Below, one piece after another: positions 16,563 through 52,616 of a stretch of DNA of 64,000 nucleotides (position 1 is its first letter; each line of letters begins with the position of its first letter). The stretch covers positions 10,613-74,612 of the forward strand of contig JAGQGU010000013.1 in assembly GCA_020432165.1 (NCBI GenBank), given 5' to 3'. The notes beneath the pieces were generated by a model that saw nothing but the letters and a program-made list of their open reading frames with translations, had not been told where the DNA came from and did no database searches. Both the position numbers and the translations under genes were made by a program. This DNA comes from Thermomicrobiales bacterium. GTDB lineage: Bacteria > Chloroflexota > Chloroflexia > Thermomicrobiales > UBA6265.

Positions 16563-16689
16563 CTCTTCACTCCAAACGCACACGCAATTCTGCGCGCAAA
16601 CTGGTACCGTTTGAGTGACATTTTCGCATGATTCGGGAGAAAGGTCACCTGATATCGTGCCGGGTTACACAGAGAAGGCGGATTCATCC

Positions 16690-18252
16690 ATGTCCGAGAC
16701 AAAAACCCCCGTGCTACTGGCGATCCTCGATGGTTGGGGTATTGGTAAGGAGAACGATCCTGGCAACGCTGTGGCGTTGGCAAATACACCGAACATGGAC
16801 GTGTTGATGACCGAGTATCCCCACGCGACATTGCTCACCAGTGGTGAGAATGTGGGGTTGCCGCACGGTCAGATGGGAAATAGCGAGGTTGGTCACCTGA
16901 ATATTGGTGCCGGATTCATCGTCTATCAATGGATCACGCGCATCGACAAAGCGATTGAGGACGGCAGCTTCCAGACGAATCCTGTGCTGCAGAGAGTCTT
17001 TCAGCGCGCGTTGGCGAACGATGCCCAACTTCATCTCCTGGGCCTCATCGGTGAAGGAGGCGTTCACGCCCACACCCGCCACCTGGTGGCCACAATTCAG
17101 GCCGCATTCGCGGCAGGTCTCCACAAGGTTCTTGTCCACGGATTTACAGATGGTCGCGATACCTCGCCCACATCGGCGATAGAGTTCGTCAAGCCGATTG
17201 AGGAGGCACTCTCCGCACAAGAAGGTGCGCGTATCGCCACGCTGATTGGTCGCTACTTCTCGATGGATCGCGATCATCGTTGGGAACGCGAGGCCAAGGC
17301 CTTCAACCTGATCGTCCATGCCGAGGGTACTCCTGCAGCATCGGCGGATGCCGCCATCCATGCAAGCTACGATGCCGGTGTGACCGATGAGTTTATGGAA
17401 CCGGCAGTAATTCTGGATGCAGATGGCAATCGCCACACGATCGGTCCCAACGACGAGTTCCTCTTCTTCAACTTCCGCTCGGATCGTGGACGCGAACTTT
17501 CGGAAGCACTGACAAGCCCCACCTTCACCGGTTTCGATCGTGGCAACTGGGATATCCATCATCACCTGACGACGATGACGACTTACGAGGAGAGTCTGAC
17601 CGCCGATGTGATCTTTCCGCCGCAGGATGTGGAGTATCCGCTCGCGCGGGTGATCAGCGAGGCTGGCAAGACGCAGTTCCATTCCGCCGAGACGGAGAAG
17701 TATCCGCATGTGACCTTCTTCATTAATGGTGGGCGCGAGGAGCCTTTCCCGGGTGAGACACGCCGTCTGGTAGCCTCACCGAAAGTGGCAACCTATGATC
17801 TGCAGCCAGAGATGAGCGCACCAGATGTTTGCCAGGGGGTGGTCGATGCCATCCTCAGTCGCGAGTACGATGTGATCATCGTGAACTTCGCGAACGGTGA
17901 TATGGTGGGGCATACCGGTGTGATTCCGGCCGTTGTCAGCGCCGTCGAAACGGTAGATGGGTGCGTTGGCAGAATCACCGCCGCGCTGGCGGAGGTCGGT
18001 GGAGTTGGCATCTTCACCGCCGATCACGGCAATGCTGAAGAAGAGATCAATCCCGAAACCGGTGGTCCGATGACAGCTCACACCACCAATCCAGTGCCGC
18101 TGGTGCTCTTCGCACCCGAGGATTCACCATTGAGATACGCCCACTTACGCGCGGGTGGAATCCTGAGTGCGCTCGCACCGACGGTGCTCGATCTGGCCGG
18201 GATTCCGATTCCGGACTCGATGACGCAAGCAAGTTTGATTGTTCGTGACTAG
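16690..18252 (+). CDS. gpmI: 2,3-bisphosphoglycerate-independent phosphoglycerate mutase
   Basis: MSETKTPVLLAILDGWG...GNSEVGHLNIGAG...HGFTDGRDT...VNFANGDMVGHTG...TADHGNAE, the canonical iPGM motifs. Confidence 0.9.
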   Translation: MSETKTPVLLAILDGWGIGKENDPGNAVALANTPNMDVLMTEYPHATLLTSGENVGLPHGQMGNSEVGHLNIGAGFIVYQWITRIDKAIEDGSFQTNPVLQRVFQRALANDAQLHLLGLIGEGGVHAHTRHLVATIQAAFAAGLHKVLVHGFTDGRDTSPTSAIEFVKPIEEALSAQEGARIATLIGRYFSMDRDHRWEREAKAFNLIVHAEGTPAASADAAIHASYDAGVTDEFMEPAVILDADGNRHTIGPNDEFLFFNFRSDRGRELSEALTSPTFTGFDRGNWDIHHHLTTMTTYEESLTADVIFPPQDVEYPLARVISEAGKTQFHSAETEKYPHVTFFINGGREEPFPGETRRLVASPKVATYDLQPEMSAPDVCQGVVDAILSREYDVIIVNFANGDMVGHTGVIPAVVSAVETVDGCVGRITAALAEVGGVGIFTADHGNAEEEINPETGGPMTAHTTNPVPLVLFAPEDSPLRYAHLRAGGILSALAPTVLDLAGIPIPDSMTQASLIVRD

Positions 18253-18258
18253 AGGTTC

Positions 18259-19578
18259 GTGGTGTTTGTAGCGATTGTTGCCTCGCTCGCTTGCTGTCTT
18301 CTCTTGAGTATTGTGGTACTTGGGATTAGGCATGCTGACAACTCTATTTCTGGCGCTTCCGAGCAGAGCGATGTGTCCACCGCCGCGTCTGCGGAGTCCT
18401 ACTCATCCTCTCAATTGAGCGAGGTGGTCGCCGAGCGAAGTAATGAGTCGAAGGATTATCTAGACCTGACTAGCGATCAACACGCAAGCCGGATCGGCGT
18501 CATGTCGGAACTTGCAAGGCAGCTGAATCATCTGGGCACTCCACAGGGCGAATATGACGACACTGGCCTATTTCAATCCACAGTTCCACGGATTAGGCGG
18601 AACTTTCCGTTGGGAACCGGCCAAGGGAATCAGTACCCTACTGGGCAGATGAAGCCAGAACCTAAGAAACGCAAAGTAGGCCCATCGCCCACCTCTCAGG
18701 CGATTCCTCGAATAAGCAATTACCGAATCGACCCTCATACTGGATGGCTGATACCAATAGAGAACCAGGTGATTCTCAAAGCACCACCATCCGCCCCATC
18801 TGATTCTCCGCCAGACCGAAAGGTGGGGCTTCCTAAACCGCGTCTGCAGAGTCAAAGGGTTCAAGCTGAAAGACGTGATACACGCGTAGAGGACAGCGAT
18901 ATCGAGGCGCTGATAGCGGCAGCTCATGAGCGTTCGTCGAGAATGAGTGTTCAGGATATTGAGGGACTATATGGGTATCTTGACCTCATGAAACTATCGG
19001 GCCTTCACGCGGGCGATATACCCATTGACAGCATGCTACACAGAAGTCCACCCGAGACAAACTACACCCCGTTAGTAAACCGTTTTCTCAATCTGGGCAT
19101 CAAGCTATTTCACTTCACAGCCAGGCAGAATTCCGACAGCATTAGTTTGACGGGGCTGTTTTGCTCGGACACGTTGAGACAACGAAAAATGCATCCAACT
19201 ATGGTGAGTTCCTTAGTTTCGCAGGAGCAAGACAGAGTATTGGGTCTTGATCAATACGTGCACCTCTGCTTCACTTTGAATGCGAAAATGGCATGGGCTC
19301 ACCACTTCCGATCCACTCAACCCATAGTATGGTTCGAGGTATCTCCAATAGTCCTCGAAGAACCTAAAGTGTTGTTCTGCCGAGACTACGCCAACAAAAG
19401 AGGAGCTGAGTTGCTACCAATTGCCAGCCTCACTGATCTCGACTTGTATGCTCTCGCAACTCAATGCGAGCGAGTTGGATACTGGCAGCTACTAGTACCG
19501 AAAACCATCCGCCAAAATCGAATGCGCAAGGTTTCAGCGTCTCTATACCCACAAGAAGGTCGTTCAATATGGCAGTAA
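18259..19578 (+). CDS. Membrane-anchored protein with a long disordered linker and a C-terminal DarT/Tpt1-like (ADP-ribosyltransferase-fold) domain. The function is hypothetical.
   Basis: A GTG start lies 6 nt after the gpmI stop, with AGAGG as RBS. The N-terminal TM helix is VFVAIVASLACCLLLSIVVLGI. About 250 low-complexity residues follow. The C-terminal domain has LFHFT (19105-19119), QYVHLCF (19252-19272), VLFCRDYANKRG and YWQLLVP (19480-19500). These line up by eye with DarT motifs (L/I)YH(F/I)TH, DYVPFYF, VFTD and AEFLV. GC is lower than in the flanks. Confidence 0.5.
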   Translation: MVFVAIVASLACCLLLSIVVLGIRHADNSISGASEQSDVSTAASAESYSSSQLSEVVAERSNESKDYLDLTSDQHASRIGVMSELARQLNHLGTPQGEYDDTGLFQSTVPRIRRNFPLGTGQGNQYPTGQMKPEPKKRKVGPSPTSQAIPRISNYRIDPHTGWLIPIENQVILKAPPSAPSDSPPDRKVGLPKPRLQSQRVQAERRDTRVEDSDIEALIAAAHERSSRMSVQDIEGLYGYLDLMKLSGLHAGDIPIDSMLHRSPPETNYTPLVNRFLNLGIKLFHFTARQNSDSISLTGLFCSDTLRQRKMHPTMVSSLVSQEQDRVLGLDQYVHLCFTLNAKMAWAHHFRSTQPIVWFEVSPIVLEEPKVLFCRDYANKRGAELLPIASLTDLDLYALATQCERVGYWQLLVPKTIRQNRMRKVSASLYPQEGRSIWQ

Positions 19579-20243
19579 GGCAGATTTTCATTCCCGCTTC
19601 CAAACCGCCTTACTGGTCCGAGACTAGTGTTAGTTTTGAGTGGCACCCTGGACTATCGACATCTCAGAAAATGAAGTCCGTCCAGTCACTCCATGAAAGT
19701 GCCAAGATTCGATTTCCCAATATCTCCCTACTAGAAGTTTCTACAAAATCTGATATCCAGATGGGAGTCCAGCTCAGTGCGTTCAATCTATATCTGGAGC
19801 AGTCCACTCTCGGCATAGTCCCTTTCGAGGCGGCGTTTCAAAGCTCGAAGGTGTATCGGATGCATGGTCAAATCACCGAAGCGCTTCGTCTTGGCCCCCG
19901 AGAGGCCAAATCCTACGCCAGAACCATCGACCGAGATGATCAGCTCCTAGGCTTTCAGTGGAATGAACGAGTGTGGCCGCTTGAGCCCAAAAGCTGGTTC
20001 TACGATTGGCTCTACATACAAGCACTACTGACCTCAGCACAACATCTGATCGGAAACATTCGCGAATTTGGAGGATTCACTGATATCGAGTTTAACCCGC
20101 TGAAGTCTTTCAACTGTCAAGCGAGAACATGCGCGATAGTTGCATCCTCGCATGACGACAGTCAGCTGTCACAATGGATTCAACATCCTGAGTTGTTACT
20201 AGGTGACCCTCAGGGGCTGACAACACAAGTTCGGCTCTTTTAG
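19569..20243 (+). CDS. Hypothetical protein translationally coupled to the DarT-like gene. I recognise no family.
   Basis: ATG 19569 overlaps the last 10 nt of the upstream gene. The sequence is MAVRQIFIPASKPPYWSETSVSFEWHPGLS...WFYDWLYIQALL...FTDIEFNPLKSFNCQARTCAI. The ORF-track start at 19464 would overlap the upstream gene by 115 nt. Confidence 0.55.
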   Translation: MAVRQIFIPASKPPYWSETSVSFEWHPGLSTSQKMKSVQSLHESAKIRFPNISLLEVSTKSDIQMGVQLSAFNLYLEQSTLGIVPFEAAFQSSKVYRMHGQITEALRLGPREAKSYARTIDRDDQLLGFQWNERVWPLEPKSWFYDWLYIQALLTSAQHLIGNIREFGGFTDIEFNPLKSFNCQARTCAIVASSHDDSQLSQWIQHPELLLGDPQGLTTQVRLF

Positions 20244-20246
20244 GCA

Positions 20247-21911
20247 ATGAACAGACGTGCGCTGTTATCGATATTTCCGGCGATGGCGCTGGGGACAGTG
20301 CGCGCGCAAGAGGAGACCAGCACCGTGATCAATATCATTCCCGCACCGCAGCAAGTGTTGCCGGGCGAAGGTACGCTCAAGCTTGATGAGACGACGCAGA
20401 TTGTGGCCAGTGTCGGAGCCGAAAACGCTGCAACCTGGCTGCGCGATGGACTTGCTCGCTTTGCCAAACTGGAGATCGGTGCGGGCGCGGGATCGGTGAT
20501 TCATCTCACGATCAAATCGTTTGAAGCAACTCTGCCCGAATCCTTGGGCGTACGAGCGGATGGCGATCTGATTGGTCGCGAGTTGCACACGATTGAGGTC
20601 ACGGCCAAGGGTGTGACGATAGAGGGTGTTTCGGCGGAAGCAGTCTTTCGCGGTGCGACATCGCTGATTCAAATGGCAGCGTTGAATGGCGGCAATATAC
20701 CCGTCGGCACCATTATCGATGCTCCGCGCTTCGCCTGGCGCGGACTCAGTTTCGATGTCGTGCGCTGCTTCCATCCCGCCAGCACGGTGCGTGATGTGAT
20801 CGATTTGCTGGCGCTGTACAAGATGAATGTGCTGCACTGGCATCTCACCGATACTGAAGGCTGGCGCGTAGAGGTACCAGGTTGGCCGAAGCTGACCGAG
20901 GTAAGCGGCAAGACCGCCCGCAACGATCGCGAAGGCGGCTATTACACCGCTGAAGAGTTCTCCGAGTTGGTGCAGTATGCGGCGGATCGCTATATCACCG
21001 TCGTGCCGGAGTTCGATTCGCCAGGTCATACGGCGAGCGTGCTCGCGGCCTATCCCGAACTTGCAGCCGCGGGCATTCTTGATACCGATCCGGCCATGCA
21101 TTACCTCCATCCGAATCAGCCGGGCGTCCCGGATCTGCTGAAGGATGTCTACTCCTCGCTCGCGGCCACCACAAATGGCGCGCGCATCCATATCGGTGGT
21201 GATGAAGCCATCGCCATGACCCATGAGGATTTCCAGAGTTATATCCAGATGGCGTTGCCGATCGCACGCGGAACGGGTAAGGGCGTGGTTGCCTGGCAGG
21301 AAGCTGCCCGTGGCGGTCTCTCCGAAGGAGATGTGGTGCAATGGTGGATCCCGAATGCGATGGTAGAAAAGATGCGAGCCATCCGGGATTCTGGTGACTA
21401 CAGCCAGTTCGGAGGATTAGGCGGAAACATTGAAGTGGCCAAGGCCTTCATCGAGCTATTCTCATCGGCCGATGAGGATGTGCCGTTGGCTCTGGAGCAA
21501 GGTGCGATGGTGCTCCTTTCACCCGCGACAGATCTCTATCTGGACACCAAATATCCTGAACTCAGCATAGACCCACTTCAGGGTGAGCAGCATGAACGTC
21601 TCGGAATGCCGCAACGTGTTTATGAACAAGGCACTGTCGCCGACTCTTATGACTGGGATCCCGTCACTATTCATGAAAATGTGCCAGCCGATCGTATCGC
21701 TGGCATTGAAGCGGCTATTTGGTGCGAGTTCATTGAGGATCGCAGCGACCTCTTCTTCCAGCTCCTGCCACGCCTGGCAGGCTCGGCCGAGAAGGCCTGG
21801 AGTCAGAATCTGACATGGGCGGATCACAAGGCACGATTGATGATTCAGCCGACCTTGTGGGATGCGATGGAGTTGCCGTACTTCAAGTCATCCGTCGTGT
21901 GGGATTCATAA
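20247..21911 (+). CDS. Secreted beta-N-acetylhexosaminidase (GH20)
   Basis: Signal-like N-terminus MNRRALLSIFPAMALGTVRAQ. Motifs are FAWRGLSFDVVRCF, MNVLHWHLTDTEGWR, PEFDSPGH and HIGGDEA. Confidence 0.85.
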   Translation: MNRRALLSIFPAMALGTVRAQEETSTVINIIPAPQQVLPGEGTLKLDETTQIVASVGAENAATWLRDGLARFAKLEIGAGAGSVIHLTIKSFEATLPESLGVRADGDLIGRELHTIEVTAKGVTIEGVSAEAVFRGATSLIQMAALNGGNIPVGTIIDAPRFAWRGLSFDVVRCFHPASTVRDVIDLLALYKMNVLHWHLTDTEGWRVEVPGWPKLTEVSGKTARNDREGGYYTAEEFSELVQYAADRYITVVPEFDSPGHTASVLAAYPELAAAGILDTDPAMHYLHPNQPGVPDLLKDVYSSLAATTNGARIHIGGDEAIAMTHEDFQSYIQMALPIARGTGKGVVAWQEAARGGLSEGDVVQWWIPNAMVEKMRAIRDSGDYSQFGGLGGNIEVAKAFIELFSSADEDVPLALEQGAMVLLSPATDLYLDTKYPELSIDPLQGEQHERLGMPQRVYEQGTVADSYDWDPVTIHENVPADRIAGIEAAIWCEFIEDRSDLFFQLLPRLAGSAEKAWSQNLTWADHKARLMIQPTLWDAMELPYFKSSVVWDS

Positions 21912-22022
21912 TTCCTGTTCAGACGTTGCCCTGGGGTTGACCTCCCGTCCATTCCCAGAAAATGGATAGAGATGGGGCAGCAACAGCGTAGACTCGGACC
22001 TCGCTGGCGCAAGCGCCTGGTA

Positions 22023-22045
22023 GCACCGCATTTCATATGCGGTGC
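22023..22045. repeat. Short palindromic hairpin, CCGCATTTCATATGCGG type
   Basis: GCACCGCA-tttcatat-GCGGTGC. A near-identical core recurs at 40871..40893. Confidence 0.5.
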
Positions 22046-22219: not shown

Positions 22220-23092
22220 ATGATGCATCCAAATCAGATCCCCACCTCCCCTGCCCTCGTAGGCGATCTACTACAACGCCAGTACCCAATGCTGGCAAAC
22301 GAGCCGATTTCCGAGACACCCTTCCATGGCACCGATAGCGACACCTACCGCGTTGGCAAGCATCACAGTGTGCGTCTTCCGATCATCGATTGGGCGGTAA
22401 ACAACGAGACCCATATGCGTCCCTGGCTGCCATGGCTCCAGGACCGACTTGCGGTTCAGGTTTCCGGTCCGATCTTCTACGGCGAGCCAGACTGTGGCTA
22501 TCCTCACGGTTGGACAGTCTATCCCTGGCTGCCCGGTGAACCGATCGCATTCGGATGCGATGATCCCCAGGTTGCTATCGATATCGCAGCATTCCTCCAC
22601 GAACTCAGGGCGCTGCCAACCGAGGGAGCACCCTCGGCAGGGCGTTCACCGCACGCCCTTGATACCGATGTGCGCAAATGTCTCGCACAGTTAGCGGCAG
22701 AGGATCATCGCGACGATCTCATCGCCGTCTGGGAAGCAATGATGACCACACCCGCCTGGGATGGCAGCGGCGTAGTCTGGATGCACGGCGATGTCGCACC
22801 GGGAAATTTGCTCTTCATAAACGGTCGCCTCAAGGCAGCAATCGATTGGAGTGCATTGGGAATCGGCGATCCGGCAAGCGATTTGCAAGTAGCCTGGAAC
22901 ATGCTCGCTGCAAATGCCCGAGCAATTTTCCGCGAAGCGATGGGTGCAGACGATGCTACCTGGGAGCGAGCCCGGGCACGAGCATTCGCACAGGCAAGCT
23001 TCCAACTGCCCTACTATCGAGAGTCGTTGCCAGCGCTAGCACAACAGGCGCAATGGGTGTTTGGAGAGATTCTGGAGGAGTTCGGTCGGTAG
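22220..23092 (+). CDS. Aminoglycoside/choline-kinase-type phosphotransferase (APH family)
   Basis: VWMHGDVAPGNLLFINGRLKAAIDWSALGIGDPASDL carries the Brenner HxDxxxxN and DWS motifs. ATG 22220 is preceded by AGGGAG. The upstream extension to 22037 runs through repeat elements. Confidence 0.75.
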   Translation: MMHPNQIPTSPALVGDLLQRQYPMLANEPISETPFHGTDSDTYRVGKHHSVRLPIIDWAVNNETHMRPWLPWLQDRLAVQVSGPIFYGEPDCGYPHGWTVYPWLPGEPIAFGCDDPQVAIDIAAFLHELRALPTEGAPSAGRSPHALDTDVRKCLAQLAAEDHRDDLIAVWEAMMTTPAWDGSGVVWMHGDVAPGNLLFINGRLKAAIDWSALGIGDPASDLQVAWNMLAANARAIFREAMGADDATWERARARAFAQASFQLPYYRESLPALAQQAQWVFGEILEEFGR

Positions 23093-23184
23093 GTGGTGGA
23101 ACAGCAAAGACCCAGAGAGAGTATCTCTGGGCCTCTGCTCTCTTCACATTCACCGCACATACAATGCGGTGCTACCGCCCAGAA

Positions 23185-52540: not shown

Positions 52541-52616
52541 TGGTACCCCAGGTAGGAATCGAACCTACGGCCTACCGCTTAGAAGGCGGTTGCTCTATCC
52601 GCTGAGCTACTGGGGC
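52541..52616 (-). tRNA. tRNA-Arg (anticodon UCU) with encoded CCA
   Basis: The reverse complement is GCCCCAG-TA-GCTC-AGCGGATA-GAGC-A-ACCGC-CTTCTAA-GCGGT-AGGCC-GTAGG-TTCGATT-CCTAC-CTGGGGT-A-CCA. It folds as a canonical cloverleaf with TCT at positions 34-36. Confidence 0.9.

Follow-up and report, generated by a model that had tools for sequence, protein, structure and literature searches.

Research on DarT-type DNA ADP-ribosyltransferases treats them as toxins that control growth, as effectors against phages, and as a model for the reversible modification of DNA bases. In the DarT1-NADAR (DarTG1) systems described from E. coli C7 and Geobacter lovleyi (Schuller et al. 2023, PMC11543638), which have also been placed in a phage-defence context (PMC11825919), the toxin gene comes first and overlaps the antitoxin gene. 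Their bacteriostatic toxin ADP-ribosylates guanine in single-stranded DNA, and the NADAR rescues cells from it. In DarTG2, found in Thermus and M. tuberculosis, the toxin DarT2 is instead paired with a macrodomain antitoxin, DarG. Here we analysed a 64,000-nucleotide (nt) stretch of a Thermomicrobiales bacterium contig (JAGQGU010000013.1), called the window below, in which a cassette of two overlapping genes, gene 1 (18259-19578) and gene 2 (19569-20243), fills the gap between gpmI and a GH20 gene. Judging from the homologues of the two proteins, the mapped residues, the arrangement of gene 1 into anchor, linker, and domain, gene coupling, synteny, and divergence, we favour on balance the view that the cassette belongs to a divergent subtype of the DarTG1-type toxin-antitoxin modules. 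The original prediction, made from the letters of the window, had recognised a toxin-antitoxin or conflict-type pair with a composition foreign to the housekeeping genes around it, which is borne out by the DarT and NADAR homology and by the G+C content at third codon positions (GC3). It had also called the pair a new type, whereas the architecture, judged by homology, is a variant of the known DarT1-NADAR kind (PMC11543638). What does appear new relative to described systems is a clade of toxins with glutamine in place of the catalytic glutamate and an anchor-linker architecture, and we found no paper on either.

Gene 2 (19569-20243, + strand) encodes a protein of 224 amino acids (aa) that matches the Pfam family PF22397 ("DarT1-associated NADAR antitoxin") with E 1.3e-64 over profile positions 1-206 of 212, as well as the G. 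lovleyi NADAR structure PDB 8BAT (E 1.2e-37). We detected 2766 homologues, several of which carry the NCBI name "DarT1-associated NADAR antitoxin family protein". According to the original prediction the pair lacked a NADAR partner and gene 2 belonged to no family that could be named; both statements fail, as gene 2 is itself the NADAR. No macrodomain (DarG) match was found beside gene 1. In the E. coli C7 NADAR, E88, K95, and D171 are needed for guanine de-ADP-ribosylation, and K115 is conserved (Schuller et al. 2023, PMC11543638). The equivalents in gene 2 are E87 and K94 (both within EAAFQSSK), K114 (REAK), and D172 (FTDIEF), accompanied by E174, and D172 is the aspartate specific to DarT1-associated NADARs. 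This catalytic set is kept in the window and in all eight NADARs that come from the same position or lie beside relatives of gene 1. From its sequence, gene 2 is a full-length, plain member of the DarT1-associated NADAR family, and we predict it to be an ADP-ribosyl-guanine glycohydrolase that serves as the antitoxin.

Gene 1 (18259-19578, + strand) encodes a 439-aa membrane-anchored homologue of DarT1-like ADP-ribosyltransferases (ARTs), the putative toxin component. Residues 284-385 match the Pfam DarT family PF14487 (E 7.1e-8; 32.8 bits against a cut-off of 22.5), the match spanning just profile positions 1-117 of 201. An exhaustive phmmer search recovered 133 relatives, all of which align to the C-terminal ~150-240 residues of the protein. 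A word-indexed homologue search, run with gene 1 and also with an alignment of the 10-member clade formed by the window protein and its nine closest relatives, returned essentially the query alone, and a metagenome scan with the clade alignment yielded one extra locus (L091). In an AlphaFold2 model built on this 10-sequence alignment, the catalytic domain occupies aa 271-430 (19069-19548, + strand) with a predicted local distance difference test score (pLDDT) above 90. The top Foldseek match of the model, and thus the nearest solved structure, is E. coli C7 DarT1 (8BAQ; probability 1.00, template-modelling (TM) score 0.53, target-normalised), followed by DarT2/DarTG structures (7OMU, 7YK3, 7OMV-7OMY) and then by Tpt1/KptA. 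The ART-like domain that had been proposed for residues ~270-439 is confirmed by the Pfam match, the model confidence, and this structural match. A profile of the family likewise matched DarT1 8BAQ (E 6e-15) and DarTG 7OMU in the PDB, whereas single short DarT relatives retrieved nothing from it with phmmer, so that only family profiles reached DarT1 and DarTG. A phmmer search of the PDB with gene 1 itself gave NqrC as its sole match, which we rejected as a chance match of the transmembrane helix.

Aligned by structure, the domain and 8BAQ share just 20% identity, and the column of the catalytic glutamate was located by several routes. We mapped it through a profile (A2) of the window domain and 55 short DarT relatives, aligned over 8BAQ residues 3-166, onto both 8BAQ and 7OMU, and through MAFFT alignments A1-A3; 8BAQ is the chain of the E152A mutant, and its chain index is the number used in the paper plus one. 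As in DarTG1, the NAD+ motif is present as H285-F286-T287 (equivalent to H17, F18, and T19), together with M344 (M71) and N379 (N104), all of them invariant. N379 is the guanine-coordinating asparagine that sets DarT1 apart from DarT2, which has histidine. With DarTG2 the pair shares the DarT fold, the PF14487 match, and the logic of reversible DNA-base ADP-ribosylation, but its antitoxin is a NADAR rather than a macrodomain and its base-coordinating residue is the Asn of the guanine type rather than the His of the thymine type. The departure from both systems is at the catalytic column itself, which corresponds to E152 of DarT1 and E160 of DarT2: where the consensus reads "K.EILVP", gene 1 reads "GYWQLLVP", placing Gln410 at the position of the glutamate directly after an invariant tryptophan. 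The two residues are encoded by TGG CAG at 19483-19488 (+ strand), and the glutamine codon CAG (19486-19488) is one nucleotide away from GAG.

This substitution is not peculiar to the window. W409 and Q410 are invariant in all ten aligned clade members, as are 17 further positions that include the NAD+-binding and base-coordinating residues, at an identity to the window protein of only 23-35% over the full length and 30-50% over the DarT domain. The same Trp-Gln motif was read in two additional loci (L096 and L098), and an intact NADAR lies directly downstream wherever the DNA was recovered (the window, L001, L091, L092, L096, and L098). The invariance of the motif at such divergence, combined with the intact NADARs, argues that the Gln form is under selection and not decaying. 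Among the 133 relatives aligned with hmmalign, the column holds Glu in 89 and Gln in 11, while 32 were unaligned there, four of which show Trp-Gln by MAFFT. The proteins P0144, P0154, P0197 and P0166, P0221 show that Gln also occurs in a few short soluble relatives ('AQ', 'YQ') and that some anchored relatives keep Glu, so the anchor and the Gln are correlated without being strictly linked. Loss of the glutamate and membrane anchoring each appear to have arisen, or to have been kept, more than once in the DarT family. Our literature search, for which papers in subscription journals were mostly out of reach, found no natural or engineered Glu-to-Gln DarT variant (E160Q). A natural, conserved Gln clade with an intact hydrolase offers a test of glutamate-free DarT chemistry, or of how such a pair persists after its toxin has been disarmed.

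The second departure from the described DarT1 proteins, which are ~170-210 aa long and have no extension, is the ~270 aa that precede the catalytic domain of gene 1. The extension opens with a predicted transmembrane helix at aa 2-28 (18262-18342, + strand; AlphaFold2 helix, pLDDT 94), which leads into a disordered linker at aa ~32-190 (18352-18828, + strand) that is rich in Ser (14%) and Pro (10%) and has a pLDDT below 50 over most of its length. No similarity between lineages could be detected in this linker, and a tblastn search of L001 with the N-terminal 270 aa came back empty. A helical segment follows at aa 196-251 (18844-19011, + strand), modelled as helices at 196-228, 231-238, and 243-251, with a block-mean pLDDT that rises from ~56 at its start to 85-94 over aa 211-250. 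Only the closest relatives have this segment: the phmmer matches of P0122-P0124 start at aa 180-215, and similarity in L098 starts from aa 214. Residues 1-23 of gene 1 are uncharged, with no Lys or Arg before the hydrophobic stretch and such residues present after it. Nine of the ten clade members are anchored in this way (the exception is the 168-aa P0126): their hydrophobic stretch, free of charged residues and 17-33 residues long, starts at residue 1-10, with 0-1 Lys or Arg before it and 1-5 after it, and none of the nine has a positively charged n-region. By the positive-inside rule, this charge pattern indicates an anchor with the N-terminus outside and the C-terminus inside rather than a cleavable signal peptide, and we infer that the DarT domain is cytoplasmic. 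The anchor and the disordered tether suggest regulation by spatial confinement. A membrane-anchored DarT with a disordered tether was not found in our literature search, in which subscription journals were again mostly not covered.

The genes of the cassette are tightly packed, and the arrangement read in the original prediction was confirmed. Gene 1 starts at a GTG (18259) 6 nt after the TAG stop codon of gpmI (18250-18252), and a Shine-Dalgarno-like GAGG lies within this gap, 4-7 nt 5' of the GTG. Gene 2 opens with an ATG (19569) within the final codons of gene 1, whose stop codon is the TAA at 19576-19578, giving a 10-nt overlap (19569-19578, + strand) compatible with translational coupling, and a second Shine-Dalgarno-like motif, GAAGG, precedes it at ~19555-19559. 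Gene 2 ends with a TAG at 20241-20243, leaving 3 nt before the ATG of GH20 at 20247. In relatives the toxin and NADAR genes overlap by 7 nt (L091), 1 nt (L001), or 58 nt (L003 and L093). We considered a regulatory hairpin at the junction of the two genes (19573-19615) and rejected it, as its folding energy equals that of shuffled sequences (z = -0.01).

In composition the cassette stands apart from its surroundings. Its G+C content (GC) of 0.502 is the lowest among all 1985-bp tiles of the 64 kb (mean 0.577, standard deviation 0.021), or ~3.6 standard deviations under the tile mean, which is more than chance or sampling would give, and its GC3 is 0.51-0.52 compared with 0.60-0.75 in the neighbouring genes. 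The spot counts first reported (29 G+C of 60 in the line at 19081 and 27 of 60 in that at 19741, against 39 of 60 at 17041, in gpmI) are exact. A signal scan found no promoter-like or terminator-like sites above shuffle expectation in or beside the cassette, in agreement with the prediction that it has neither of its own; promoter-like sites were fewer than in the shuffles, and terminator-like sites were at chance level. The cassette is probably transcribed by read-through from gpmI into GH20, with gpmI as the probable source of its transcription, which would make the pair co-transcribed with its neighbours. This differs from described DarTG1 pairs, which sit on plasmids, in prophages, or in defence islands, whereas the window pair occupies a conserved chromosomal position without a promoter of its own.

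That position is shared with other metagenomic contigs, in which the gene order is icd(-), gpmI, DarT-like gene, NADAR, GH20, APH, eno(-), pheS. The pair was found there in at least five related Thermomicrobiales-like lineages, and at exactly the gpmI-GH20 position in every close relative recovered, with NADARs at the same position elsewhere being 49-54% identical to gene 2. Identity between the syntenic lineages is 88-91% for icd, 85% for eno and pheS, 78-84% for gpmI, 60-75% for GH20, 61-66% for APH, 49-62% for the NADAR, and 27-50% for the DarT domain, with none detectable for the linker. The low GC and GC3 of the pair recur in L001 and L003. The best matches of gpmI in the genome collection have 50-64% identity, the top ones all being Thermomicrobiales, and the source organism appears to be an uncultured, Thermomicrobiales/Sphaerobacteraceae-like representative of the Chloroflexota. 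In two distant Thermomicrobiales (L013 and L014, whose gpmI has 55-60% identity), eno(-) and pheS come immediately after gpmI, which indicates that the block of four genes (DarT-like, NADAR, GH20, and APH) is a lineage-specific, old acquisition. In another contig (L015), unrelated open reading frames (ORFs) of 430 aa and 508 aa fill the gpmI-eno gap.

The horizontal acquisition put forward in the original prediction is supported insofar as the pair is absent from distant Thermomicrobiales and has a foreign GC3, but the acquisition was not recent, since the pair keeps its position in every close relative. A recent insertion is ruled out, because the pair has the same position and the same low GC3 even where the flanking genes of the lineages are down to 78-91% identity. 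We also looked for insertion scars and flanking repeats around the cassette and found just short two-copy matches of chance quality, and we discarded a phage origin, as no homologue of gene 1 was found in phage genomes. Conservation at this position combined with host-like codon usage had been named as an observation that would speak against a foreign module; the position is conserved in close relatives, but GC3 is not host-like in any of them. As for whether gpmI and GH20 adjoin each other where the pair is missing, the pair is indeed absent from L013 and L014, but gpmI abuts eno there and GH20 is absent too. The locus illustrates how a toxin-antitoxin pair can pass down vertically amid housekeeping genes, change several times faster than the genes around it, and exchange one toxin architecture for another.

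Two forms of the toxin occupy this single position. The anchored Trp-Gln form occurs in the window, L001/L002, L096/L097, and L098/L099, while L003/L004 ("RYAEVLIP") and L093-L095 ("RSSEILIP") have a short, soluble toxin of 182-191 aa in which the glutamate is retained, encoded at 5561-6136 in L003 and 3510-4058 in L093 with the 58-nt overlap with the NADAR given above. The NADARs share 49-62% identity and do not group according to the form of the toxin. Remodelling in place and allele replacement would both fit these data. Plasmids (Sulfitobacter pDFL14-10 and an Allorhizobium plasmid) also carry short soluble toxins, each with a PF22397 NADAR immediately after it. These toxins and the short forms in L003 and L093 are members of the same DarT subfamily as gene 1, at ~30% identity, and differ from gene 1 in being 170-191 aa long, in having no anchor, in keeping the Glu, and in having a longer ADP-ribosylating turn-turn (ARTT) loop. 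The plasmid toxins are annotated as DarT family and the downstream NADARs just as "hypothetical protein", yet the latter match PF22397 with E 1e-83 to 1e-86 (L100 2979-3623 and L101 2979-3686; NC_019329.1 and NZ_CP049243.1). These plasmid relatives and their NADARs identify the family as a known, mobile DarT1-NADAR system. The Allorhizobium plasmid pair adjoins SIR2, HNH, and AAA-ATPase genes, a defence-island-like neighbourhood.

In the explanation that we favour, the single transmembrane helix and the long disordered linker of gene 1 would keep the DarT domain tethered on the cytoplasmic side of the membrane, and the domain would ADP-ribosylate guanine in single-stranded DNA (ssDNA) from NAD+, as DarT1 does. 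Its activity is likely to be attenuated or altered, because Gln410 replaces the catalytic Glu and the ARTT loop is ~10-17 residues shorter than in DarTG1. The translationally coupled gene 2 would strip ADP-ribose from guanine and in this way neutralise gene 1, and the pair would be an old, fast-evolving resident of its position in a Thermomicrobiales-like lineage, where it may act in phage defence or growth control. The conserved, modified active site and the intact NADAR in every Gln-type pair suggest that the toxin still does something that the NADAR must reverse, although this argument is indirect.

Several observations weigh against this explanation. The catalytic Glu is a defining residue of these enzymes, and the E152A mutant of DarT1 is inactive and non-toxic (PMC11543638). 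In ScARP, a related DNA-targeting ART, most of the activity disappears with the equivalent Glu-to-Gln change (E164Q; PMC12945103). The effects of these two mutations mean that the substitution in gene 1 is functionally serious and that the protein may be inactive. The ARTT loop, which contacts the substrate and lies just before the Glu column, is the one found to be shortened relative to canonical relatives. The equivalent of R52, which together with D54 is among the other active-site residues that DarT1 needs, is ambiguous, as R326 aligns with it in a region where the alignment of the NAD+ loop is uncertain, and the window lacks the Arg that is near-invariant in the clade at column 322; the D54 column holds Leu328. 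The DarT model of PADLOC matches gene 1 only weakly (E 0.0028, 15.5 bits). A conserved position in a housekeeping neighbourhood is in addition unusual for a mobile defence module. Should the gene 1 protein prove inactive, the cassette would be an ordinary decaying or domesticated DarTG1 module.

We consider the main rival explanation possible, if improbable: gene 1 would be a domesticated toxin or pseudo-toxin whose transferase was lost through the Glu-to-Gln change and the shortened loop and which acts as a tethered binder of NAD+/ADP-ribose or DNA (a sensor, scaffold, or regulator), the NADAR being kept for housekeeping or protective de-ADP-ribosylation, for example against foreign toxins that ADP-ribosylate guanine. 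Besides the glutamine and the two inactivating mutations, the fixation of the cassette beside housekeeping genes in at least five lineages and its lack of a promoter would fit such a role. However, the invariance of H285, F286, M344, N379, and W409-Q410 at 23-35% identity is what a maintained active site would show and drift would not, no Gln-type pair was seen in which the NADAR had lost a catalytic residue or its tight coupling, and sister lineages keep a canonical Glu toxin at this very position, indicating that an active toxin is tolerated there.

A further possibility, which we put forward tentatively, is that the anchored Trp-Gln DarTs and their dedicated NADARs form a functionally distinct DarTG1 subtype, whose toxin sits on the inner side of the membrane and works by a glutamate-independent or strongly attenuated mechanism. 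Such a subtype would restrict ADP-ribosylation to nucleic acid found at the membrane, for instance incoming DNA; alternatively, its toxin would be mild enough for long retention inside a housekeeping operon. The anchored Gln and soluble Glu forms would then be alternative alleles at one position, maintained by conflict-driven diversification.

It is also conceivable, but unlikely, that gene 1 is active with a changed chemistry or target, the Trp-Gln active site and the short ARTT loop fitting the DarT fold to something other than guanines within ssDNA, such as nucleic-acid phosphate ends in the manner of Tpt1/KptA, or a target close to the membrane such as incoming DNA. The Tpt1/KptA RNA 2'-phosphotransferases, which have an Arg-His-Arg-Arg catalytic set and presumably do not depend on the catalytic glutamate of ARTs, are distantly related to the domain by fold and by profile and are its next-best matches after the DarTs. 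The match to them is far weaker than that to DarT (TM ~0.35), and they have no NADAR partner. The invariant Trp-Gln motif, the clade-specific change in the loop, and the conservation of the anchor across the clade could all reflect a new target, but the guanine-coordinating N379 is invariant as well, and the NADAR next to gene 1 is of the DarT1 type and has the catalytic set for guanine-ADP-ribose including D172, which points to a bond that is still guanine-ADP-ribose.

We regard it as rather less likely still that the pair is an exported toxin and its immunity protein, the hydrophobic segment being a secretion signal as in the secreted pierisin-like DNA ARTs ScARP and Scabin and the NADAR protecting the producer or its kin. 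Secreted nucleotide-modifying ARTs do carry an N-terminal transmembrane or signal sequence (PMC12945103), and the long linker of gene 1 could be processed. Such pierisin-like ARTs are recognised by a cleavable signal sequence and by the ART motif R-S-E/Q-x-E. The positively charged n-region expected of such a signal is missing, since the stretch of 17-33 aa begins at residue 1-10 and Lys or Arg come after it and not before, unlike in ScARP and Scabin; no translocation or receptor-binding domain or secretion-system gene lies adjacent; and NAD+ and ssDNA are intracellular substrates. ScARP and Scabin structures were absent among the Foldseek matches of gene 1, which include a marginal match to pertussis toxin (E 0.37). 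Finally, a new type of conflict system that joins an ART-like toxin to a partner of no known family is very improbable: NCBIfam has no match for either cassette protein, PADLOC has no model match for gene 2, and the word-indexed search with gene 1 found itself alone, but the PF22397 match, the 8BAT homology, and the 2766 relatives of gene 2 refute it.

The neighbours of the cassette have ordinary assignments. Upstream, gpmI (16687-18252, + strand) encodes a 2,3-bisphosphoglycerate-independent phosphoglycerate mutase, whose homologues in L001 and L003 have the Pfam domains Metalloenzyme and iPGM_N. The mechanically called ORF opens at a GTG at 16615, while homologues and the gene calls on related contigs favour the ATG at 16687 (MSETKTPVLL...). 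Downstream lies a gene of the GH20 beta-N-acetylhexosaminidase family (20247-21911, + strand), for which the identical gene in L005 has the domains Glyco_hydro_20b and Glyco_hydro_20. Its N-terminus (20247-20315), MNRRALLSIFPAMALGTVRAQ, resembles a signal peptide and contains an Arg pair, possibly a twin-arginine translocation (Tat) signal, which suggests that the hexosaminidase is exported. The last gene of the block before eno is an APH-family phosphotransferase (22220-23092, + strand; Pfam APH in the identical gene of L005), whose ORF opens at 22037 and which is called from 22220 in identical contigs. The window lacks the small TfoX_N-domain gene that separates GH20 from APH in L003 (8740-9054, - strand). 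Two related hairpin-forming elements of ~26 nt flank APH, at 22019-22045 (between GH20 and APH) and 23151-23176 (between APH and eno), with the core CACCGCA...TGCGGTG and 88% mutual complementarity, and they may be terminators or a repeat resembling repetitive extragenic palindromes (REP). Elsewhere in the 64 kb, a tRNA-Arg(TCT) at 52541-52616 (- strand) is the sole tRNA and the sole Rfam match at gathering level.

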